Both the position numbers and the translations under genes were made by a program. Shown here one piece after another: positions 3,529 through 27,928 of a DNA stretch of 64,000 bases; positions within the stretch are counted from its first letter, which is position 1; the number at the start of each line of letters is the position of its first letter. The stretch is from Escherichia coli O157:H7 (GTDB taxonomy: Bacteria > Pseudomonadota > Gammaproteobacteria > Enterobacterales > Enterobacteriaceae): the NCBI RefSeq assembly GCF_013167455.1, contig NZ_CP038330.1; one strand, given 5' to 3'. The notes beneath the pieces are model-generated. The model was not told where the DNA came from. It did no database searches and worked only from the letters and a program-made list of their open reading frames with translations.

Positions 3529-4017
3529 ATGTTTGGAAAAATCATTTTAACTGCGATGCTCACAACCAGCTCTGCCACTGCCGAAGATGCCGGGAAGAAC
3601 ATCGCCTCAGGCTTGGCAACTGCATCTACCCGCCAAATAGGTCAGGCCATCATGCCAACTCTAGCTATCGGCTCGGCCATTGCAAAAAGCGCAGGAAAAG
3701 GCATGGTGTTAGGTTTCGCTGAGACATCTGCCAGCTATATTTCCCACGATGACCTGAGCGCCACTCGAAGCTATCAAAACCCTGAGGCTGTTGATATGGC
3801 AAAAGGCCTGGGGACCTTGAAAGACGTCCCTGATTTCCTCTACGTCATTACAGACGTAAATGCCAACATGGCTGACAAATGCAAGCGCGTCTGGGAGCCT
3901 CAATCACTGGCTTTAAGCCAATTGATTGTTGAGCTGGTGGCACTGCGTAAGACGAACAACAAAGGTAGCTACGAACAAGCGCTATCCCACCTCGATTGTT
4001 CAATATTCACAAACTAA
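3529..4017 (+). CDS. secreted hypothetical protein
   Basis: ATG at 3529 with GAGG upstream; N-terminal signal peptide MFGKIILTAMLTTSSATA; hairpin terminator follows. Confidence 0.55.
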   Translation: MFGKIILTAMLTTSSATAEDAGKNIASGLATASTRQIGQAIMPTLAIGSAIAKSAGKGMVLGFAETSASYISHDDLSATRSYQNPEAVDMAKGLGTLKDVPDFLYVITDVNANMADKCKRVWEPQSLALSQLIVELVALRKTNNKGSYEQALSHLDCSIFTN

Positions 4018-4022
4018 AACAA

Positions 4023-4045
4023 TTAAGGGGCCGTCGGCCCCTTAT
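4023..4045 (+). terminator. rho-independent terminator-like hairpin
   Basis: GC-rich inverted repeat AAGGGGCCGTCGGCCCCTTA followed by T-rich run, just after the stop at 4017. Confidence 0.5.
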
Positions 4046-4107
4046 CTTTAATTACCCAAGTTCTTTTGATACCTGAGCTACAATAGTTTTAAATCAGAAT
4101 ACCAAAA

Positions 4108-4386
4108 TCAATTCACATGGATGGCGAATACTTCAACCGGATAATCTCCAAAGTGCGGGTGCGTTATGACGTTCCTTGAGAAGCCACGCCAAGGACGAAT
4201 CTCTATCCTGGACATATCTCCAGCCTTTGGGTAGCCACACTTAACATGGACTTCATCATACTCGCGCCCCTCTAGTCTTTTTATCCAGTAGTCTGTGACG
4301 AGGCGATATTCATCTGGTTTTTCTCCAGATTTGATCTGATCGAAGTAAATCTTTTTTACGGGCAGATGAAGTATTCTCTTTTTCAT
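4108..4386 (-). CDS. ASCH/PUA-like domain protein
   Basis: Start MKKRILHL at 4386 with AGGTGG RBS; KKIYFDQIKSGEKPDEYR pattern resembles ASCH domains; last gene of the 10013->4108 minus-strand operon. Confidence 0.45.
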   Translation of the reverse strand: MKKRILHLPVKKIYFDQIKSGEKPDEYRLVTDYWIKRLEGREYDEVHVKCGYPKAGDMSRIEIRPWRGFSRNVITHPHFGDYPVEVFAIHVN

Positions 4387-4411
4387 AATCACCACCTGAT
4401 AGCTCATCAGA

Positions 4412-4618
4412 CTATCTAACTATTAGACAAAACATCCCTTTTTCAATTTCTGTCTCTCTCGCCTCATGGGCCAATACAATATCCGCGATAACACGAATAT
4501 TCCCTTCATAGTTGCGAATGGCCGCATCCCGCATCGTGTCTAAAGTGTCCTGACACTTCGCTCGCCTGAATTTAACGAGCCAACTTTGCCGATCTATCTT
4601 GTCCACACCAAATCCCAT
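4412..4618 (-). CDS. hypothetical protein (68 aa)
   Basis: ORF packed between flanking operon genes. Confidence 0.4.
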   Translation of the reverse strand: MGFGVDKIDRQSWLVKFRRAKCQDTLDTMRDAAIRNYEGNIRVIADIVLAHEARETEIEKGMFCLIVR

Positions 4619-5236
4619 TCAGCGAACCATGTATCCAGCTTCTTTTGCCGCAGCATCAAGCTCGGAGGAAAAGTTAACGTCGGACTTTTCTGCCGCGTTA
4701 TAGAGGGCTCCACACTTGGGCCATGAGCGCCCTACCAGTTTCATCGCCAACGCATCCGCCAGCATTTCTCGGATCTGTGTTTCAGCCTCACCAAAATCGG
4801 CTAGAGTTTCGTCTATGCCCGACTCTTCCATCAGCTCGATGAGCTGAGGTTGTTTGAGCCAGACGCCTGTTTGCATTTCCAACTGGTCTCTTGCATCTGC
4901 CACCAATTGGCGTTCAAGGGTGACGCCATTTACGGTCTTAACAAATTGCTTTGGCTGACGCTTTACCTTTTTTGGTCTGGACACATCAGAGATAACCGTC
5001 ACCGGCTTCCCACGCAGTTCACGCGGCAACGGTCCACTTAGCCCCAGAACTAAGCGACGAGCGTACTCATGCTCGTATGGTTTCAACCCTCGACCTTCAC
5101 GGTACATCTCAGTATCCACCAGCAGATCACCGCGCAGCCTCGCGTTTTTCCGCACTTGTTCGGACAAGACCGATTTGCCCTTCCCGCTGGCTCCCATTAC
5201 GAGCGAGTGAGATTCTACTTTGTTATCAAAAAACAT
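4619..5236 (-). CDS. P-loop NTPase / kinase-like protein
   Basis: Walker A motif GASGKGKS near N-terminus followed by DLLVD. Confidence 0.55.
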   Translation of the reverse strand: MFFDNKVESHSLVMGASGKGKSVLSEQVRKNARLRGDLLVDTEMYREGRGLKPYEHEYARRLVLGLSGPLPRELRGKPVTVISDVSRPKKVKRQPKQFVKTVNGVTLERQLVADARDQLEMQTGVWLKQPQLIELMEESGIDETLADFGEAETQIREMLADALAMKLVGRSWPKCGALYNAAEKSDVNFSSELDAAAKEAGYMVR

Positions 5237-5948: not shown

Positions 5949-7375
5949 TATTTACCTTCCTTACTTCTGATACCGTGCTGCACCACGGTATGGCGACCGC
6001 AATTCACATTCAGGTGATCCCGAACTGCGGCCATGACCGCTGAATGCAATCTGTAATCCACACTCTGCCCAAGTGTTTCTGTCGCTTGTTCTTTTGCCAT
6101 CCACGAAATATCAAAGCTATCAGGTATCGACATCAACTCCTGAACCAGATCGACCGATGGCTTGTAAATGCGGCCACCGTCTTGGATGTACACTGCATCC
6201 TTTACCCCACGATCCTGAGACTTGAGGATGGTCGGGCAACTGGTGCTTTCTCTCGTCAAGAACGCAGGCATCCTGCGAGAAGTTGACTCTCTGGCCTGAA
6301 TTGACTTCAACGCTGTGACGTCTGCACAATCCCCGAGGTGCTTCTCGATCACCGGCCACAATCGTCCACCAGCTCTCTGCTCAGGTTTCGGTGGAACGAA
6401 CCCAGGGAAGACCGACGCCACCATGTAATAGCGTTCTCGCCCCTGGTACGCGCCGAAATCCAGACCGTTCAAGACCATCTCAGTGAGGAAGTACCCCATC
6501 CGCCGCAGTGTCGTTCCCATCATCGCCCCGGCTCCGGATGCTTTGAAGTTCGGGACGTTTTCCACCAGCACGACGGCAGGGTTCACGACCTCGATCTGTT
6601 TTAGTGCCGGGTAAACCATGTCGAGCATGGTGGAGAGATCTTCAAGAGAACGCTCTTTGTCCCTTGGACTTTTGGCGTTTGAGTGGTCATCACACCCCAA
6701 CGAGTAATGGGCCAAACCAATTGGTGGGCACTCCGCCAGCAAGGCTCCAAGGCGATCCAGCTCCAGGTGATGAATGTCTTCATTCAGCAGGATACGCGGG
6801 GAGCTGTTCACCAGCGTATTGAGCGCATGTACTTCACTCAGGTTCCGCCCGGATGCTCTGTCTCTGGCTTCAACTGGACGATGTTCCAAAACAATCTCAG
6901 CCTTCCAGCCAAGCGATTCCATAACATGAATGTCTACCCCGCCAGTCAATGCCACAAAGGCACGGAAAGGGCTGGTTTTTCTGAACCGATCAGCAATGGC
7001 AAAGGCTCTGTTTGCGACGGGAGTGAAGACTACTCGACCTTTTCGCATTTCGACGTGGAAACGCTCTGTATAGCGAGGGAAGCACTTATCTATGAGCCCT
7101 TGTCCAGAAAACTCAATAACGGTTTCCAGCGGGTTGTTGGAGCGACTCTTTGGTTGATACCGGCGCTGATAAACCTGGTGTGTCTGTAGTTCATCGGTCG
7201 CTGGGATCACCGAAAAACCGCCCATCCCCTCCCCTGGCTCAACGGCGATGCCCATACCTGGCTTGAACCCCATAACATCCAAAAAGTTGGACGAAACCCT
7301 AACCTTGCGTTTATCGCCTACTCGATTGAACGCAAGTTGTTTGGTTACTACGGAGGGGGAGACGATCGGTAACAT
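5948..7375 (-). CDS. DNA cytosine-5 methyltransferase-like protein, divergent
   Basis: 475 aa; motif I-like EFSGQG, motif VI VVLVENVPNF, motif VIII-like QGRERYYMV, motif X-like GQSV; canonical PCQ catalytic motif not found (closest SLGCDDHS). Confidence 0.5.
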   Translation of the reverse strand: MLPIVSPSVVTKQLAFNRVGDKRKVRVSSNFLDVMGFKPGMGIAVEPGEGMGGFSVIPATDELQTHQVYQRRYQPKSRSNNPLETVIEFSGQGLIDKCFPRYTERFHVEMRKGRVVFTPVANRAFAIADRFRKTSPFRAFVALTGGVDIHVMESLGWKAEIVLEHRPVEARDRASGRNLSEVHALNTLVNSSPRILLNEDIHHLELDRLGALLAECPPIGLAHYSLGCDDHSNAKSPRDKERSLEDLSTMLDMVYPALKQIEVVNPAVVLVENVPNFKASGAGAMMGTTLRRMGYFLTEMVLNGLDFGAYQGRERYYMVASVFPGFVPPKPEQRAGGRLWPVIEKHLGDCADVTALKSIQARESTSRRMPAFLTRESTSCPTILKSQDRGVKDAVYIQDGGRIYKPSVDLVQELMSIPDSFDISWMAKEQATETLGQSVDYRLHSAVMAAVRDHLNVNCGRHTVVQHGIRSKEGK

Positions 7376-10194: not shown

Positions 10195-10330
10195 TTTTGT
10201 TTCTTGGTATCGTTTTATTGTCTCTTGATATTATTTTATGATGCTGTAATAATCATAAATAAGGGCCGCATCGCTCTTCGACCTTCGTTGCAGCCCTTAC
10301 AACACAATCAAGCAATTAAGGAGCTTTGTT

Positions 10331-21417: not shown

Positions 21418-22302
21418 TCAGCGTTCCAGCCCCCTCTGCCGCCCTAACTGCCACGACACCGACCCGCCCTGCACGATGCCCATAACCTCGCGGCCGAGTT
21501 GGCGGTCGATGATCGGCCGCCACGGGACAAGGGTGAACTCATGGGATTTCTCGACCACGGCGAACTTGCCGCTCGATAGATGCACGGTTCCGGTAAACTT
21601 GCCGCTGACGCTCTCGCCGTCCGTGGCGGCGCGGAACGGCAGGCCCTTACTCAAAGCCATATCCGATCCGACGCCGGCTACCTCGCGCTCCCGCAGGATG
21701 GCGAGAAGGTTGCGCCGGTAGAAGACGCGGCTGTCCCGGCTGCGGGTGGCGTCGCCCTGTTCGATATGGTGCTCGCGGCGCTGGTCCATGGCTTCGCGGA
21801 CTTGTTGCCCGAAGCCGGTTGGCGCAAGGTCGGCCGTCTCGCCGTGGATCAGCCGCCGGTCCAGCCAGGTCGCGCCGTCCGATCCGATCTGTTTGTTCAG
21901 ATCGACCGGGGAAAGGACGCGAACGCTGGCCTGACTGTCTCGGCCGGCGTCATGGGCGGCGGCACGGCTGACCAGATCATCGGGGATGCGCCATTGGTCG
22001 GCGTCGATCCGCTCGACGATACCGGCCCGGCGTAGCGCCTCCAGCCGGCGCACATGGGCATCGACATAGCCCTCATAGTCGCCGCCTGGAACGCGGCACG
22101 TATAGGAAGAATAAACGCCCTTTTCACCCAAGTCCAACAGCTTTGGACCGCAGTTGACTCTTTCGACACCCCTGCGATGCAACCCAATCCGGCTGACGGG
22201 GAGCCAGCAACGCTGAAAATTTACCCTCCTCTTTCCCACTAGCGGCTCCTTTTCCGACAACCAGCACGGCGGATCCCTGCCGCGGCGCTGTGAACGCAGC
22301 AT
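21418..22302 (-). pseudogene. relaxase/VirD2-like fragment associated with the ISCR2-floR unit
   Basis: 294-aa ORF between floR and ISCR2; matches the usual virD2-remnant context (recollection); no intact relaxase motifs checked. Confidence 0.55.
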
Positions 22303-22309
22303 TTTGATT

Positions 22310-23945
22310 GGTATCGTTGGCCTTCAGGCTCGTCAGTCAAACAGACCCAGGAGCAGCTCAGCCGGTGGCGCCCGGCTTTCGGGTAACGCCCTGGTCCCGC
22401 TGGTTTCGGCTTTGTGCTTCAGGTGATCAAGGATCTGCTTGATCACTATAGGGTCTTCAATGCAGGCGATGACTTTCATGGCGCCGCCGCAGCCGCTGCA
22501 GGTCTCGATGTCGATATTGAAAACACGCTTGAGCCGTTGCGCCCATGTCATCGACGCTCGCCGTTGTGCTGGTGTTGCCGGTTCATCAGCCACCCTGACC
22601 TTGTTGCCCCTGCCCCGTTTTGCCGGCGTGACCAACGCCCGGTGCCGACTGTTGGGTGCGAACACCCCGTGGAAGCGGGTTAGGTTGACTCTGGGCTTCG
22701 GTACCAGGGCGGCCAGCCTTGCAATGAAATCCAATGGTTCGAAAATGACGTGCGTGGTGCCGTCCCGGTACGGCGTCTTGAGCTGGTAGCGCACGTTGCC
22801 GCCTCGTGTTAACGACAGCCGCTTCTCGGATACCGCCGGGCGGCTGATGTACCGGCACAGCCGTTCGAGCTTCTTGCGTTCATCGGCCCTGGCCGCCACG
22901 CCGGCGTGCAGGCTGGACCCGGCTACCTTGCCAATCCCGTCACCGAACGGATCACCACTGGTCGGCAGAGTTTGCAAAGTGAACACCTTTCGCCCCGCCT
23001 GTGAACCGACAGCGATACGGTAAGTGATCGAGTGCCCCAGCAGGGGTGTCATCGGGTCGTCATCCACCGCATCCGAGGCCAGATAGCTGTTTTCGACATC
23101 CCGTTCCAGCAGGCCTTGCCGTTCCAGATAGCGACCCACCCGGTGGGCGATGGTGTGCGTCAGCTGGGTGAGCTCTGGGCTGGTCGGCGCCTTGACCCAG
23201 CGGAAACGCGCTGAGCCGTGGGATTGCTCGACATACACACCGTCGAGAAACAGCATGTGGAAGTGAACATTCAGATTGAGCGCCGATCCAAAACGCTGGA
23301 TCAGGGTGACCGCGCCCGTCTTGGCCACTTGGTGGGTATGGCCCGCTTTCTTGACCAGGTGCGTGGCAATGACGCGGTAAACGATGCCCAGCACCCACCC
23401 CATGATCTCGGGCCGGCTGGCAAACAGGAAACGCAGCTGAAACGGGAAGCTCAACACCCACTGACGCATGGGTTGTTCAGGCAGTACTTCATCAACCAGC
23501 AAGGCGGCACTTTCGGCCATCCGCCGCGCCCCACAGCTCGGGCAGAAACCGCGACGCTTACAGCTGAAAGCGACCAGGTGCTCGGCGTGGCAAGACTCGC
23601 AGCGAACCCGTAGAAAGCCATGCTCCAGCCGCCCGCATTGGAGAAATTCTTCAAATTCCCGTTGCACATAGCCCGGCAATTCCTTTCCCTGCTCTGCCAT
23701 AAGCGCAGCGAATGCCGGGTAATACTCGTCAACGATCTGATAGAGAAGGGTTTGCTCGGGTCGGTGGCTCTGGTAACGACCAGTATCCCGATCCCGGCTG
23801 GCCGTCCTGGCCGCCACATGAGGCATGTTCCGCGTCCTTGCAATACTGTGTTTACATACAGTCTATCGCTTAGCGGAAAGTTCTTTTACCCTCAGCCGAA
23901 ATGCCTGCCGTTGCTAGACATTGCCAGCCAGTGCCCGTCACTCCC
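22310..23945 (-). mobile_element. ISCR2 (IS91-like rolling-circle element), complete copy; oriIS-side boundary approximate
   Basis: Contains intact rcr2; terIS-side end at 23945 defined by the end of identity with the truncated copy at 19660. Confidence 0.85.
22333..23826 (-). CDS. rcr2: ISCR2 rolling-circle transposase (IS91 family)
   Basis: 497 aa; HUH-type motifs (HFHMLFLDGVY), zinc-binding CxxC pairs; recognised sequence. Confidence 0.95.
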   Translation of the reverse strand: MPHVAARTASRDRDTGRYQSHRPEQTLLYQIVDEYYPAFAALMAEQGKELPGYVQREFEEFLQCGRLEHGFLRVRCESCHAEHLVAFSCKRRGFCPSCGARRMAESAALLVDEVLPEQPMRQWVLSFPFQLRFLFASRPEIMGWVLGIVYRVIATHLVKKAGHTHQVAKTGAVTLIQRFGSALNLNVHFHMLFLDGVYVEQSHGSARFRWVKAPTSPELTQLTHTIAHRVGRYLERQGLLERDVENSYLASDAVDDDPMTPLLGHSITYRIAVGSQAGRKVFTLQTLPTSGDPFGDGIGKVAGSSLHAGVAARADERKKLERLCRYISRPAVSEKRLSLTRGGNVRYQLKTPYRDGTTHVIFEPLDFIARLAALVPKPRVNLTRFHGVFAPNSRHRALVTPAKRGRGNKVRVADEPATPAQRRASMTWAQRLKRVFNIDIETCSGCGGAMKVIACIEDPIVIKQILDHLKHKAETSGTRALPESRAPPAELLLGLFD

Positions 23946-24036
23946 ACTCGATTGTAAACAAGCACACAAAACCCTTTAGTGACAACAATTTGCAAGAACT
24001 ATCAGGCTCAGTGCCATGAAAAATACCATGACCAGA

Positions 24037-24261
24037 TCATGAGGTTGAACACGGCTTGCGCCGGCAGCGTTCACGCTCCTGGTCGGCGATCTCGCCCGGC
24101 TGCAATGCTAGCTCAGCATCGGTCATGCGCTCCAGCACGTCGCGTAGGCGGATGGTGCAAGGAATGGGCGGCAGCTCGAACTCATAGCCGCCGGCGATCA
24201 TTTCGGCCGCAATCTCCTCGGTGATGAAAAACGGCTCGTCGTCTTGGTTCGGCTTCTTCAT
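24037..24261 (-). CDS. hypothetical protein (74 aa)
   Basis: ORF overlapping the resolvase stop (ATGA). Confidence 0.3.
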   Translation of the reverse strand: MKKPNQDDEPFFITEEIAAEMIAGGYEFELPPIPCTIRLRDVLERMTDAELALQPGEIADQERERCRRKPCSTS

Positions 24262-24965
24262 GCCCTTTCCTCCTGGCGCTCATCCTGGCCGACAGCGGCC
24301 AGGGCATCGGCTTCCGTCAATGCGTCCTCCACGAACGCGCCGTGCTGCTTCGCTTCGGCCTGGCTGACCTCGGCCCATATCCGTTTCACCTGGGCCGCAC
24401 TGTACCCGGCCAGCTCGGCGGTCTTGTTGATGCTGTAGCCGGACTTGCGCAGCGCGACAACTTGGGCGCGGCGCTTCGGATCAGCACGGCGGCCCTTGTA
24501 CCGCCCGGCCTGGCGGGCCAACTCAATGCCTTGGCGCTGGCGTTCGCGCCTGTCCTCGTAGTCGTCGCGGGCCATCTGCAAGGCCAGGCGAAAAAGCATG
24601 ATCTGCACGGCTTCCAGCACGATCTTGGCGACGCCCTGGGCCTCGGCCGCCAGGTCGGATAGATCGACCACGCCAGGGACGGCCAGGCGTGCGCCTTTGG
24701 CCTGTATCGAGGCCACCAGGCGCTCGGCCTCGGGCAAAGGTAGGCGGCTGATGCGGTCGATCTTCTCGGCAATGACCACCTCGCCGGGCTGTAGGTCGCC
24801 GATCATGCGCAGCAGCTCAGGCCGGTCGGCGCGTGCGCCGGATGCCTTCTCACGGTAGATGCCGGCGACGTAGTAGCCGGCGGCCTTCGCGGCCGTAGTG
24901 ATCGCCTCTTGGCGTTCCAAGTCCTGCGCGTCGGTGCTGACGCGCAGATAGACCCGCGCCACCAT
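24258..24965 (-). CDS. serine recombinase (resolvase family)
   Basis: N-terminal catalytic motif MVARVYLRVSTDAQDLERQ; C-terminal HTH (YSINKTAELAGYSAAQVKRIW); start taken at internal Met. Confidence 0.8.
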   Translation of the reverse strand: MVARVYLRVSTDAQDLERQEAITTAAKAAGYYVAGIYREKASGARADRPELLRMIGDLQPGEVVIAEKIDRISRLPLPEAERLVASIQAKGARLAVPGVVDLSDLAAEAQGVAKIVLEAVQIMLFRLALQMARDDYEDRRERQRQGIELARQAGRYKGRRADPKRRAQVVALRKSGYSINKTAELAGYSAAQVKRIWAEVSQAEAKQHGAFVEDALTEADALAAVGQDERQEERA

Positions 24966-25118
24966 CGGCGCGGCTACTGGCTTCGTCCTGCGCATACTTG
25001 CGGGCTCCTTTGGGCATACGCAAAGTGTCCGGTCATGCTACCCCCGGCCAAAAAGGCCGTCATGCGATTTATCTTGGCCGGGTCGTTATTGGCGGGTCTA
25101 AATGGCCGCTCCGTGGAT

Positions 25119-25345
25119 CTCATCGCCAGAAATGGCGATGCGAGATCCAGGGCAGGGCGGCCGCCATCGTCAGACCTGGCGATGGTCGACGCCGGCGCGC
25201 ATCGTCGGATGTGGCGATGCGAGCTCGAGGTCGGTGGCCACCGCCGGCGACCTGGTGCCATCGTCGGCAATGGCGATGCTGCAGCTCGACGTGCGCGGCC
25301 TGGTCGTCTCGGCATCGTCGGATGCGGCGATGCTCGAGCGAGGCG
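25119..25345. repeat. GC-rich iteron-like direct repeats (~5 copies)
   Basis: Repeated CATCGTC(A/G)G...TGGCGATGC units at ~25119, 25157, 25199, 25257, 25312, between the resolvase gene and IS26. Confidence 0.5.
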
Positions 25346-25574
25346 AAAAAAAACCGCCTCGGGGTGTCCGAGGCGGCAAGTCTGCATGCGGTTCAGGGAG
25401 GAAGAAACCGCGCCGGCGATCAGGGAGGAAAACCGCGCGGCCTGATGTGCAGCTCGGCCACTTTAGCCGGATTTTTCGACTTATCCGATGCGAGCGGCCC
25501 GCCGTGGGCGCTGCTCGATCTGCTGTTGCTTTTTCTCGACGTGCTTCTGCTCCTGGTGCTGCTGCTCGTCGCGC

Positions 25575-26394
25575 GGCACTGTTGCAAAGTTAGCGATGAG
25601 GCAGCCTTTTGTCTTATTCAAAGGCCTTACATTTCAAAAACTCTGCTTACCAGGCGCATTTCGCCCAGGGGATCACCATAATAAAATGCTGAGGCCTGGC
25701 CTTTGCGTAGTGCACGCATCACCTCAATACCTTTGATGGTGGCGTAAGCCGTCTTCATGGATTTAAATCCCAGCGTGGCGCCGATTATCCGTTTCAGTTT
25801 GCCATGATCGCATTCAATCACGTTGTTCCGGTACTTAATCTGTCGGTGTTCAACGTCAGACGGGCACCGGCCTTCGCGTTTGAGCAGAGCAAGCGCGCGA
25901 CCATAGGCGGGCGCTTTATCCGTGTTGATGAATCGCGGGATCTGCCACTTCTTCACGTTGTTGAGGATTTTACCCAGAAACCGGTATGCAGCTTTGCTGT
26001 TACGACGGGAGGAGAGATAAAAATCGACAGTGCGGCCCCGGCTGTCGACGGCCCGGTACAGATACGCCCAGCGGCCATTGACCTTCACGTAGGTTTCATC
26101 CATGTGCCACGGGCAAAGATCGGAAGGGTTACGCCAGTACCAGCGCAGCCGTTTTTCCATTTCAGGCGCATAACGCTGAACCCAGCGGTAAATCGTGGAG
26201 TGATCGACATTCACTCCGCGTTCAGCCAGCATCTCCTGCAGCTCACGGTAACTGATGCCGTATTTGCAGTACCAGCGTACGGCCCACAGAATGATGTCAC
26301 GCTGAAAATGCCGGCCTTTGAATGGGTTCATGTGCAGCTCCATCAGCAAAAGGGGATGATAAGTTTATCACCACCGACTATTTGCAACAGTGCC
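25575..26394 (-). mobile_element. IS26, complete 820-bp copy
   Basis: 14-bp terminal IRs GGCACTGTTGCAAA at 25575-25588 and (reverse complement) 26381-26394; intact tnp26. Confidence 0.95.
25627..26331 (-). CDS. tnp26: IS26 transposase Tnp26 (wild-type Gly184)
   Basis: 234 aa MNPFKGRHFQRDIILWAVRWY...; contains RIIGATLGF. Confidence 0.95.
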   Translation of the reverse strand: MNPFKGRHFQRDIILWAVRWYCKYGISYRELQEMLAERGVNVDHSTIYRWVQRYAPEMEKRLRWYWRNPSDLCPWHMDETYVKVNGRWAYLYRAVDSRGRTVDFYLSSRRNSKAAYRFLGKILNNVKKWQIPRFINTDKAPAYGRALALLKREGRCPSDVEHRQIKYRNNVIECDHGKLKRIIGATLGFKSMKTAYATIKGIEVMRALRKGQASAFYYGDPLGEMRLVSRVFEM

Positions 26395-27098
26395 TACATT
26401 TCAAAAACTCTGCTTACCAGGCGCATTTCGCCCAGGGGATCACCATAATAAAATGCTGAGGCCTGGCCTTTGCGTAGTGCACGCATCACCTCAATACCTT
26501 TGATGGTGGCGTAAGCCGTCTTCATGGATTTAAATCCCAGCGTGGCGTTGATTATCCGTTTCAGTTTGCCATGATCGCATTCAATCACGTTGTTCCGGTA
26601 CTTAATCTGTCGGTGTTCAACGTCAGACGGGCACCGGCCTTCGCGTTTGAGCAGAGCAAGCGCGCGACCATAGGCGGGCGCTTTATCCGTGTTGATGAAT
26701 CGTGGGATCTGCCACTTCTTCACGTTGTTGAGGATTTTACCCAGAAACCGGTATGCAGCTTTGCTGTTACGACGGGAGGAGAGATAAAAATCGACAGTGC
26801 GGCCCCGGCTGTCGACGGCCCGGTACAGATACGCCCAGCGGCCATTGACCTTCACGTAGGTTTCATCCATGTGCCACGGGCAAAGATCGGAAGGGTTACG
26901 CCAGTACCAGCGCAGCCGTTTTTCCATTTCAGGCGCATAACGCTGAACCCAGCGGTAAATCGTGGAGTGATCGACATTCACTCCGCGTTCAGCCAGCATC
27001 TCCTGCAGCTCACGGTAACTGATGCCGTATTTGCAGTACCAGCGTACGGCCCACAGAATGATGTCACGCTGAAAATGCCGGCCTTTGAATGGGTTCAT
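26394..27098 (-). CDS. tnp26: IS26 transposase, G184N variant
   Basis: Same as Tnp26 except RIINATLGF (GGC->AAC); stop codon recreated as TAG at the junction. Confidence 0.9.
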   Translation of the reverse strand: MNPFKGRHFQRDIILWAVRWYCKYGISYRELQEMLAERGVNVDHSTIYRWVQRYAPEMEKRLRWYWRNPSDLCPWHMDETYVKVNGRWAYLYRAVDSRGRTVDFYLSSRRNSKAAYRFLGKILNNVKKWQIPRFINTDKAPAYGRALALLKREGRCPSDVEHRQIKYRNNVIECDHGKLKRIINATLGFKSMKTAYATIKGIEVMRALRKGQASAFYYGDPLGEMRLVSRVFEM

Positions 27099-27161
27099 GT
27101 GCAGCTCCATCAGCAAAAGGGGATGATAAGTTTATCACCACCGACTATTTGCAACAGTGCC
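26395..27161 (-). mobile_element. IS26 truncated tandem copy 2 (767 bp; lacks the 53-bp tnp-distal end including one IR)
   Basis: Begins at the tnp stop codon directly abutting the IRL of copy 1; ends with TTTGCAACAGTGCC. Confidence 0.85.
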
Positions 27162-27865
27162 TACATTTCAAAAACTCTGCTTACCAGGCGCATTTCGCCC
27201 AGGGGATCACCATAATAAAATGCTGAGGCCTGGCCTTTGCGTAGTGCACGCATCACCTCAATACCTTTGATGGTGGCGTAAGCCGTCTTCATGGATTTAA
27301 ATCCCAGCGTGGCGTTGATTATCCGTTTCAGTTTGCCATGATCGCATTCAATCACGTTGTTCCGGTACTTAATCTGTCGGTGTTCAACGTCAGACGGGCA
27401 CCGGCCTTCGCGTTTGAGCAGAGCAAGCGCGCGACCATAGGCGGGCGCTTTATCCGTGTTGATGAATCGTGGGATCTGCCACTTCTTCACGTTGTTGAGG
27501 ATTTTACCCAGAAACCGGTATGCAGCTTTGCTGTTACGACGGGAGGAGAGATAAAAATCGACAGTGCGGCCCCGGCTGTCGACGGCCCGGTACAGATACG
27601 CCCAGCGGCCATTGACCTTCACGTAGGTTTCATCCATGTGCCACGGGCAAAGATCGGAAGGGTTACGCCAGTACCAGCGCAGCCGTTTTTCCATTTCAGG
27701 CGCATAACGCTGAACCCAGCGGTAAATCGTGGAGTGATCGACATTCACTCCGCGTTCAGCCAGCATCTCCTGCAGCTCACGGTAACTGATGCCGTATTTG
27801 CAGTACCAGCGTACGGCCCACAGAATGATGTCACGCTGAAAATGCCGGCCTTTGAATGGGTTCAT
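27161..27865 (-). CDS. tnp26: IS26 transposase, G184N variant
   Basis: Identical to the copy-2 transposase. Confidence 0.9.
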   Translation of the reverse strand: MNPFKGRHFQRDIILWAVRWYCKYGISYRELQEMLAERGVNVDHSTIYRWVQRYAPEMEKRLRWYWRNPSDLCPWHMDETYVKVNGRWAYLYRAVDSRGRTVDFYLSSRRNSKAAYRFLGKILNNVKKWQIPRFINTDKAPAYGRALALLKREGRCPSDVEHRQIKYRNNVIECDHGKLKRIINATLGFKSMKTAYATIKGIEVMRALRKGQASAFYYGDPLGEMRLVSRVFEM

Positions 27866-27928
27866 GTGCAGCTCCATCAGCAAAAGGGGATGATAAGTTT
27901 ATCACCACCGACTATTTGCAACAGTGCC
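27162..27928 (-). mobile_element. IS26 truncated tandem copy 3 (767 bp)
   Basis: Identical unit to copy 2; terminal IR TTTGCAACAGTGCC ends at 27928. Confidence 0.85.

Follow-up and report, generated by a model that had tools for sequence, protein, structure and literature searches.

Imperfect, GC-rich extragenic palindromes clustered in arrays at the 3' ends of operons, near terminators, are known from the chromosomes of enterobacteria and pseudomonads as REP or BIME elements. One strand of these elements folds better than the other through G·T pairs, and insertion elements land in or beside them. For IncP-1β plasmids, Thorsted and colleagues are said to have described, with the R751 genome in 1998, a 'family of repeated sequences' that might be a hot spot for insertions and that occupies the oriV-trfA and tra-trb regions (J Mol Biol 282:969). 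Two further systems bear on the locus studied here, namely the ParA-res system of RP4/RK2 and the F plasmid sopC site (12 units of 43 bp, each with an inverted repeat). The array examined here lies in a window of 64,000 nucleotides (the whole stretch of DNA that was analysed) from Escherichia coli O157:H7 (contig NZ_CP038330.1). A preliminary description had read it as about five degenerate direct repeats of ~22 bp, cut off by IS26 and lying next to an orphan serine recombinase. In our best explanation overall, to which we assign a probability of roughly 0.55, the array is part of an IncP-1β relic and consists of REP/BIME-like hairpin repeats. The features of the region are as follows.

22333-23944, minus strand: ISCR2 (ISVsa3) and its end, with the IS91-family transposase at 22333-23826
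24037-24261, minus strand: ORF of 74 residues (orf74) downstream of parA, without a Pfam family; it accompanies this parA allele in pAAA83
24258-24995, minus strand: parA, an IncP-1-type serine resolvase of 245 residues (PF00239 and HTH_7), with the ribosome-binding site AAGGAG at 25004-25009
25010-25107, no strand assigned: ParA res site, its 34 + 28 bp subsites arranged as in the RP4-type res restored from pBS228
25010-25023: proximal palindrome of res, TTGGGCATACGCAA, by direct reading
25046-25079: 34-bp subsite of res, GGCCAA...TTGGCC, with inverted half-sites
25080-25107: 28-bp subsite of res
25111-25345, plus strand: palindrome array of five units with conserved 3' hexamers (repeat finder, direct reading)
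25345-25377, minus strand: intrinsic terminator of traC, with a 10-bp GC-rich stem from 25377 to 25353 and a T8 run down to 25345
25378-25480, minus strand: 3'UTR of traC, with two stem-loops displaying CCUCCC loops (RNA fold z of -4.0; repeat-finder family D6)
25481-25574, minus strand: 3'-terminal remnant of traC, about 30 codons and the stop at 25481, 100% identical to traC of pADP-1 and R751
25575-26394, minus strand: complete IS26 of 820 bp, which truncates traC

Between ISCR2 and IS26, the resistance region encloses a relic of an IncP-1β plasmid backbone, at 23939-25574. Read along the minus strand, it comprises the 3' end of traC, the traC terminator, the palindrome array, the ParA res site, parA and the 74-residue ORF. 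Its sequence is 99.8% identical to pAAA83 over 23939-25579 and to R751 over 25071-25579; in R751, the array and res are situated between Tn402 and traC, and Tn402 abuts the matching segment. A test sequence spanning parA, array and traC, composed of window positions 24600-25574 joined to the next 700 bp of R751 traC, gave one contiguous match in both pAAA83 and LC623884 (100% coverage, 99.9% identity). Related plasmids carry traC followed by traD and traE on one side of the array and parA on the other. This near-identity and the same gene neighbourhood, together with the paralogous arrays that these plasmids carry at further backbone junctions, place the window array in the repeat family of the IncP-1β traC-parA spacer, and its identity as a piece of IncP-1β backbone is essentially certain. 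Because array and resolvase gene share one contiguous backbone segment, the repeats do derive from the element that supplied the resolvase, as had been proposed, and 'remnant of a replicon' can be accepted if the term is taken loosely, for a piece of plasmid backbone; the iterons of these plasmids differ from the repeats and are located elsewhere.

The left boundary of the relic is the end of ISCR2 at about 23939-23944. On the other side, divergence from traC of pADP-1 and R751, the IncP-1β primase gene, begins at 25575 with the complete IS26, which is followed by two 767-bp partial IS26 copies up to 27928. It is therefore traC, and not the array, that IS26 interrupts: 240 bp consisting of the traC 3' end and 3'UTR separate the array from the IS26 inverted repeat at 25575. 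Likewise, a hairpin at ~25340-25362 that had been listed as a separate element is the edge of the minus-strand traC terminator. The traC 3'UTR resembles a 'cuckoo'/anti-SD sRNA at a sub-threshold level in Rfam (RF02837, 35.6 bits against a gathering threshold of 49.5, E 1.5e-6), and its matches to five families related to RF02837 are likewise all below the Rfam thresholds. The IS26-truncated relic is extremely common: in PLSDB, positions 24996-25574 have matches in 1,886 plasmids, with a coverage of 80% or more in 1,713. More than 1,700 sequenced resistance plasmids contain it. The IncP-1 transfer and replication machinery is gone from the window, and the array is therefore most likely an inert passenger here.

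The ParA protein of the window shares 72-77% identity with ParA of IncP-1α, IncP-1β (pJP4), IncP-1δ and IncP-1ε plasmids, which assigns it to the ParA multimer-resolution family. It is orthologous to the ParA of RP4/RK2 (76% amino acid identity), a likeness that concerns the neighbour of the five repeats and not the repeats themselves. The recombinase is not truly an orphan, as its own res region at 25010-25107 is intact beside parA, within the 125-bp gap that separates the palindromes from the resolvase gene. For comparison, the RP4 res was restored from pBS228, an RP4-type IncP-1α plasmid with a Tn5053-like transposon in its par region that served as the α representative, by removing the transposon and one copy of the AATGC duplication. 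The RP4/RK2 res has the same 34 + 28 bp subsites and the same relative insertion point for Tn5053-family elements as the res of the window. The proximal palindrome takes the form TTGGG(C/T)ATACGCAA, and the α counterpart of the 34-bp subsite is bounded by GGCGCATT...AATGCGCC. The parCBA region of RP4/RK2 differs in that RP4-type plasmids lack the palindromes, while IncP-1β plasmids lack parB, parC and parDE.

The insertion record points to the same site. A class 1 integron IRi joins res at 25033/34 (p27003_KPC), the Tn402 IRt of R751 joins it at 25071/72, and a 1,024-bp mini-element with 25-bp Tn5053-type inverted repeats joins it in pVFN3, where the duplication TTATC lies at 25069-73. All observed ends of Tn402/Tn5053-family elements fall within 25010-25107 and none within 25111-25345. 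The parA-resIncP region is a documented preferred target of these 'res hunters' (PMC7765201), and these junctions together with the documented targeting locate res at 25010-25107, whereas the array starts only at 25111. A mini-element of about 1 kb with a 5-bp duplication sits in exactly this relic in plasmids of Vibrio and Klebsiella and in IncC plasmids, from which it appears that the parA-res pair of the window probably still works and binds its resolvase.

One reading of the five repeats is as accessory res subsites for the neighbouring ParA, given that the array is located upstream of parA and abuts res (P1 begins 4-14 bp past the last subsite) and that resolvase sites are dyad-symmetric. 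We consider it very improbable. The repeats are 20-bp units with CATCGYC arms, unlike the TTGGCC-armed subsites of 28-34 bp that align with RP4 res, and in a comparison with plasmid res and oriV regions they resembled neither, the RP4 res layout being matched by 25010-25107 only. Nor do the palindromes occur once per replicon together with a resolvase gene: they recur at four loci without an adjoining resolvase gene, namely downstream of trfA, between kfrC and traM, within klcB and close to upf31.0, and a resolvase active at all these loci would delete essential genes. Plasmids of the RP4 type keep an orthologous ParA (76% identity) and res without the palindromes, and res-hunter insertions are never found in the array.

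The array itself consists of five 20-bp palindromes at 25121-25332 with the pattern CATCG(Y)C-N6-G(R)CGATG and the fuller consensus CATCG(Y)C(R)G-NNN-(Y)GGCGATG.

25121-25140, plus strand: array unit, palindrome P1, CATCGCCAGAAATGGCGATG
25165-25184, plus strand: array unit, palindrome P2, CATCGTCAGACCTGGCGATG
25200-25219, plus strand: array unit, palindrome P3, CATCGTCGGATGTGGCGATG
25259-25278, plus strand: array unit, palindrome P4, CATCGTCGGCAATGGCGATG
25313-25332, plus strand: array unit, palindrome P5, CATCGTCGGATGCGGCGATG

The count of five repeats given in the preliminary description is thus confirmed; the units are, beyond being direct repeats, themselves inverted repeats, with arms of 7-8 bp and a centre of 4-6 nt. 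Their spacing from P1 to P5 is irregular (44, 35, 59 and 54 bp). With up to one mismatch, the pattern CATCGYCN6GRCGATG has five matches in the 64-kb window, all of them in the array, against a chance expectation of 0.06 (100 shuffles). P1 can be extended to a 42-nt hairpin at 25111-25152. On the plus strand, the conserved unit runs 6 nt further and is then a 26-nt unit composed of the 20-bp palindrome and a 6-bp palindrome (CTGCAG, CTCGAG, GTCGAC or CTGGCC(AG)). Being palindromic, these conserved 3' hexamers are also suited to double-stranded recognition.

In IncP-1β plasmids the window array is one of five paralogous arrays with about 20 copies per plasmid, the other four lying away from resolvase genes; sister clades of IncP-1β also carry such arrays at the ends of operons. 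In a scan of complete plasmids, the β-1 backbone of pMNCI062 contained about 20 palindrome copies distributed as follows.

Directly 3' of the trfA terminator, beside iteron 1: array
Inside klcB, in frame, in the KlcB linker: array
kfrC/traM junction: array
traC-parA spacer: array
Between upf30.5 and upf31.0: array

The arrays after trfA, kfrC and traC form one type, in which an intrinsic terminator is directly followed by CTCGAG and then by four to five units whose hexamers come in the same order. A second type comprises the klcB and upf arrays, and the two types have hexamer order in common. The klcB array is translated and encodes a low-complexity linker that is shorter in the α protein. Orthologous arrays, four to five in each, are present in pYKAM033 and in an IncP plasmid of Xanthomonas translucens. 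No palindrome arrays were found in the RP4-type α, ε (pTE_T100_4), δ (pEMT3) and Nitrincola IncP-1 plasmids examined, and the kfrC-traM spacer of array-less IncP-1 plasmids measures only about 50 bp. Array copies also occur on an unrelated Aeromonas plasmid. In a scan of a genome collection with a two-copy pattern, two of the 120 loci among the matches listed were real arrays, and both match IncP-1β-type plasmid sequence; the remainder were mostly chance single matches. We take the arrays to be the repeat family of the R751 genome paper, with which they share the occurrence of paralogous copies where foreign DNA accumulates, namely in the oriV-trfA and tra-trb regions. The window array is no different in sequence from that of R751; it differs in being a detached relic inside a resistance region. 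The open-access literature searched yielded no published description of the repeats. The array sequence itself is not new. Our own small new observations, reported below, concern strand bias, hexamer conservation and the concentration of restriction sites.

The distribution of the arrays also bears on whether they are a remnant of oriV iterons or of a centromere, a reading that we consider barely credible. Irregular spacing of 35-59 bp around a palindromic core is superficially reminiscent of F sopC, and one of the paralogous arrays directly adjoins the first of the TrfA iterons in oriV. However, the TrfA iterons of IncP-1β are non-palindromic direct repeats of 15-17 bp (the 17-mer has the core TGACA(C/G)TTGAGGGGC), and neither a rep gene nor DnaA boxes nor an AT-rich region lie near the window array; in pMNCI062, TrfA iterons, DnaA boxes and an AT-rich region are all located at 1457-2529. 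The arrays share with sopC the repetition of units that contain a short inverted repeat, but they are irregularly spaced, dispersed over five loci, one of which is inside a coding region, and unaccompanied by an adjacent ParA/ParB pair. Partition of IncP-1 plasmids uses the KorB operator TTTAGCSGCTAAA as centromere. This operator is not present in 24900-25600, the ORF list and Pfam domains of the relic include no partition genes, and no ParB-type gene lies near the repeats, so that the earlier suggestion of a partition site remnant is not supported. The res, iteron and centromere readings of the array are effectively excluded.

The repeats also show a strand asymmetry. On the favoured strand, nearly every copy forms a hairpin of 7-8 bp in which departures from symmetry are G·T pairs, whereas on the complement they become A·C mismatches, and the fold energy per copy is about -9 kcal/mol on the favoured strand versus about -4 kcal/mol on the complement. 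Folded as single-stranded DNA, the window array reaches -87.7 kcal/mol (z -6.5) on the plus strand and -72.4 kcal/mol (z -3.8) on the minus strand. Across 47 distinct copies, the strand with the oriT nick sequence holds 57 G·T against 11 A·C combinations; the ratio is 33 to 8 when the dominant pair 6-15 is left out and 10 to 2 when pair 8-13 is omitted as well. The favoured strand, to which the plus strand of the window corresponds, carries the RP4-type nick sequence YATCCTG|Y with an upstream inverted repeat. This nicked strand is the one that IncP plasmids transfer, with traK entering first.

Several origins of this asymmetry may be considered. A general C-to-T mutation bias was rejected as the source of the G·T excess: the GC skew at four-fold sites shows no difference between genes on the two strands, which makes a general deamination bias unlikely. 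The asymmetry could also be inherited from a single asymmetric ancestral unit, the copies being related by descent. Their orientation was fixed by only five insertion events or placements, the trb-side array is mixed, and an alternative rule based on the local direction of transcription accounts for the data nearly equally well. At pairs 6-15 and 8-13 the bases combine exactly as expected under independence, so covariation supports neither side; the one instance of covariation in favour of a hairpin is a T-A/C-G exchange at pair 6-15, seen when orthologous copies are compared. An RNA element was likewise rejected: the Rfam match on the array (17.9 bits) is at chance level, and in the sense transcripts of trfA, klcB and traC the palindrome hairpins contain C·A mismatches. 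On neither strand did the array show a promoter-like site.

The same symmetry would also suit a protein that reads duplex DNA. According to this alternative, the palindromes are operator-like sites for a dimeric DNA-binding protein of the plasmid or the host and act as insulators, silencers or architectural elements at operon boundaries. The half-sites CATCGYCR are symmetric around a variable 4-nt centre, conserved arms with a drifting centre are the classic pattern of a dimer site, R at position 8 and Y at position 13 are invariant, in keeping with symmetry, the adjacent hexamers are palindromic too, and covariation is lacking at pairs 6-15 and 8-13. Yet a dimer site does not account for a T at position 6 in 63% of copies when the symmetric A at position 15 occurs in 17%, nor for the overall excess of G·T over A·C or a conserved hexamer on one side only. 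The motif is furthermore not known to resemble any of the published IncP-1 operators, GTTTAGCTAAAC for KorA, TTTAGCSGCTAAA for KorB and TAGGGCATAATGCCCTA for KorC. In the β kfrA promoter region, the inverted repeat presumed to be the KfrA operator bears no relation to the palindromes. No protein confined to the array-bearing clade emerged as a candidate. We regard the operator reading as a serious alternative, although an unlikely one.

Alignments of orthologous arrays from three lineages show where change has been tolerated. The 7-nt arms are 93% identical and the six bases 3' of the palindrome 96% identical, while identity falls to 68% in the centre (loop) and to 75% in both the 5' flank and the remaining spacer. 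All five array positions are kept in the three lineages, whose TrfA proteins differ by 20-25%, and copy number differs between lineages by whole units. The hexamers stand out in another respect. IncP plasmid backbones have long been known to have purged restriction-type sites. In a β backbone of 38.6 kb, all sites for PstI (6/6), XhoI (3/3), SalI (3/3) and MscI (6/6), as well as every SacI and ApaI site, are inside the arrays, which make up 2.4% of the length; about 13 sites per enzyme would be expected by chance from base composition. In pYKAM033 the same concentration in arrays was observed for all these enzymes except MscI (3/6). Conserved arms and hexamers beside drifting loops, and 6-bp palindromes purged elsewhere but retained only in the arrays, argue for purifying selection on the palindrome unit.

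This pattern is difficult to reconcile with selfish or neutral repeats, comparable to MITEs or Rickettsia palindromic elements, that spread in a single event in the β-clade ancestor and have been retained wherever the plasmid tolerates them, without a function for it. Such a history would fit the restriction of the arrays to one lineage, with almost no spacer at the same junctions of α, ε and δ plasmids, the in-frame array in the low-complexity linker of KlcB, the variation in copy number by whole units and the copies on the Aeromonas plasmid. It would not, however, be expected to leave arms and 3' hexamers at 93-96% identity beside loops and spacers at 68-75%, to retain all five positions in three lineages, or to spare 6-bp palindromes that were removed from the rest of the backbone. 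We therefore consider purely selfish or neutral repeats quite improbable.

Set against these alternatives, the arrays come closest to REP/BIME elements. Judged from sequence and predicted folding, they may be structural repeats of this kind at operon ends, with a hairpin in single-stranded nucleic acid as the active form, a proposal that we rate at slightly less than even odds. They share with REP/BIME elements the location at operon ends (after the trfA, kfrC and traC terminators and at the end of the trb operon), the better folding of one strand through G·T pairs and the landing of insertion elements in or beside the palindromes. They differ in number, with about 20 copies on a plasmid lineage instead of hundreds of genomic copies, in the unit, which begins with CATCG without a GTAG/CTAC head and is shorter (20-26 nt), and in the translation of one IncP-1β array within KlcB. 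No gene for RAYT (TnpA-REP) was found in the annotated IncP-1β plasmids.

Since the favoured strand is the one nicked at oriT, we propose that the transferred strand would fold into these hairpins during conjugation. They could then provide signals for priming or structure, or they could be obstacles to replication forks or transcription at operon boundaries. G4-type ssi signals of phage and plasmid DNA offer a partial parallel, as the array hairpin lies on the nicked strand and CTG or CTC is found 3' of it in about 80% of the units, CTG being the start triplet of DnaG. Known ssi signals are, however, longer units with several hairpins, and the lead towards primase start sites is weakened by the palindromic hexamers, which place CTG on both strands. 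The arrays are also not essential, because IncP-1α plasmids transfer well without them.

A further possibility is that the arrays act as preferred or tolerated entry points for Tn3-family transposons. An IS1071 end lies inside the P1 loop in pA81, and in pADP-1 and a plasmid of B. ambifaria the IS1071 junction lies directly after P5. The trfA array contains junctions of Tn501-like elements, and the breakpoints of these and other elements in the trfA-oriV region cluster in or beside this array: pJP4, pMAB01 and R772 break at about 1296-1301 of pMNCI062, and other plasmids at 1359 and 1428. By these IS1071 and Tn501-like junctions the arrays coincide with entry points of Tn3-family elements; Tn402-family elements use res instead. 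The more specific model, in which strand-specific hairpin modules on the transferred strand allow entry of the host primase or stall forks and, as a side effect, attract Tn3-family transposons and so create the two hot spots for accessory DNA, seems to us rather improbable as a whole.

In summary, our analysis removes a false lead for this window: instead of a cryptic recombination site, centromere or origin, the repeats are hitch-hiking IncP-1β DNA that arrived with parA-res. Where resistance plasmids, IncC and others, contain the intact ParA-res, it can still draw in Tn402/Tn5053-family elements, among them relatives of class 1 integrons. The repeat family noted in R751 decades ago emerges as strand-biased and under selection, holds all the restriction-type palindromes of the backbone and coincides with insertion points of Tn3-family elements. 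If the more specific model is correct, the hairpin modules would be a counterpart of REP elements that is carried by a plasmid and linked to conjugation, and outside the arrays the plasmid would tolerate no restriction-type 6-bp palindromes. They would also provide a mechanistic basis for the landing sites of resistance and catabolic genes on IncP-1β backbones. The old question of why accessory genes occupy fixed sites in IncP-1 plasmids thereby becomes experimentally approachable, and the observations reported here could be tested on R751.

The five palindrome arrays of pMNCI062, an IncP-1β backbone of 38.6 kb, make up 2.4% of the backbone DNA and hold, across the whole plasmid, all of its PstI, XhoI, SalI, SacI, ApaI and MscI sites; none of these sites was found in the rest of the IncP-1β backbone. 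Site placement in pYKAM033 is the same except for MscI (three of six sites within arrays), and that plasmid carries no SacI site. One pMNCI062 array is also translated, being read in frame as part of the low-complexity linker of KlcB:

pMNCI062, 4581-4715: palindrome array within klcB (3773-4978)

In contrast to IncP-1β KlcB, the IncP-1α protein has a shorter linker without a palindrome array. The arrays are, in addition, joining points for Tn3-family elements. The IS1071 junction lies within the P1 loop in pA81 (about position 6000) and immediately past P5 in pADP-1 (about 6000) and the B. ambifaria plasmid (about 5000), while pJP4, pMAB01 and R772 carry Tn501-like junctions inside the trfA-proximal array (query positions 497-629). 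The palindromes also occur outside IncP: the small MOBQ plasmid pAER-3367 of Aeromonas carries three copies (at 10212, 18610 and 18650), one of which is identical to P3 of the window and one of which shares the extended stem GGATCT...AGATCC of P1.

The resolvase site next to the array, res, is common to two parA alleles, those of the window and of pJP4. To the right of 25009 the two sequences are 99.65% identical, whereas to the left, from the ribosome-binding site onward, identity of the parA DNA is only 77%. Since this switch, at 25009/25010, coincides with the proximal palindrome TTGGG(C/T)ATACGCAA, the sequence comparison suggests that parA has been exchanged in a cassette-like manner at or near the crossover site. 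A miniature element of 1,024 bp interrupts res of the same relic in plasmids of Vibrio furnissii and K. pneumoniae:

pVFN3 (NZ_CP089604.1), 6076-7099: miniature element; insertion point corresponding to window 25069-25073

It is bounded by 25-bp inverted repeats of the Tn5053/Tn402 type and a 5-bp duplication (TTATC), and carries genes for a 188-aa recombinase and a YafQ toxin. The recombinase (WP_003159185.1) also adjoins an integron in an IncP-1ε plasmid.

On one side, the relic is flanked by an IS26 'array' (window 25575-27928), which consists of one complete copy followed by two partial copies of 767 bp, each 53 bp short of the full element and missing one of its terminal inverted repeats:

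Window 25575-26394: complete IS26, 820 bp

Four IS26 inverted repeats are present in this interval, just one of them on the plus strand; the partial copies may have arisen by partial duplication in tandem, or they may be an artefact of the assembly. The relic is also adjoined by ISCR2 (ISVsa3), preceded by an ORF for a 294-aa DUF3363/VirD2-like protein (ORF and ISCR2 together: window 21418-23826). After this ORF, pVFN3 carries floR and a lysR-family gene, an arrangement that corresponds to the floR-ISCR2 module often seen in resistance islands of IncC plasmids.

When folded, the traC 3'UTR (window 25346-25480, minus strand) forms two stem-loops with CCUCCC loops and a terminator (RNA z -4.0). 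It matches the CCUCCUCCC-motif 'cuckoo' sRNA families below the Rfam thresholds; anti-hemB scores 35.6 bits (E 1.5e-6), where the gathering threshold is 49.5, and further sub-threshold matches are Atu_C7, ncS54, mmgR, ar14 and CcsR1. The traC 3'UTR of IncP-1β plasmids may give rise to an anti-Shine-Dalgarno sRNA.
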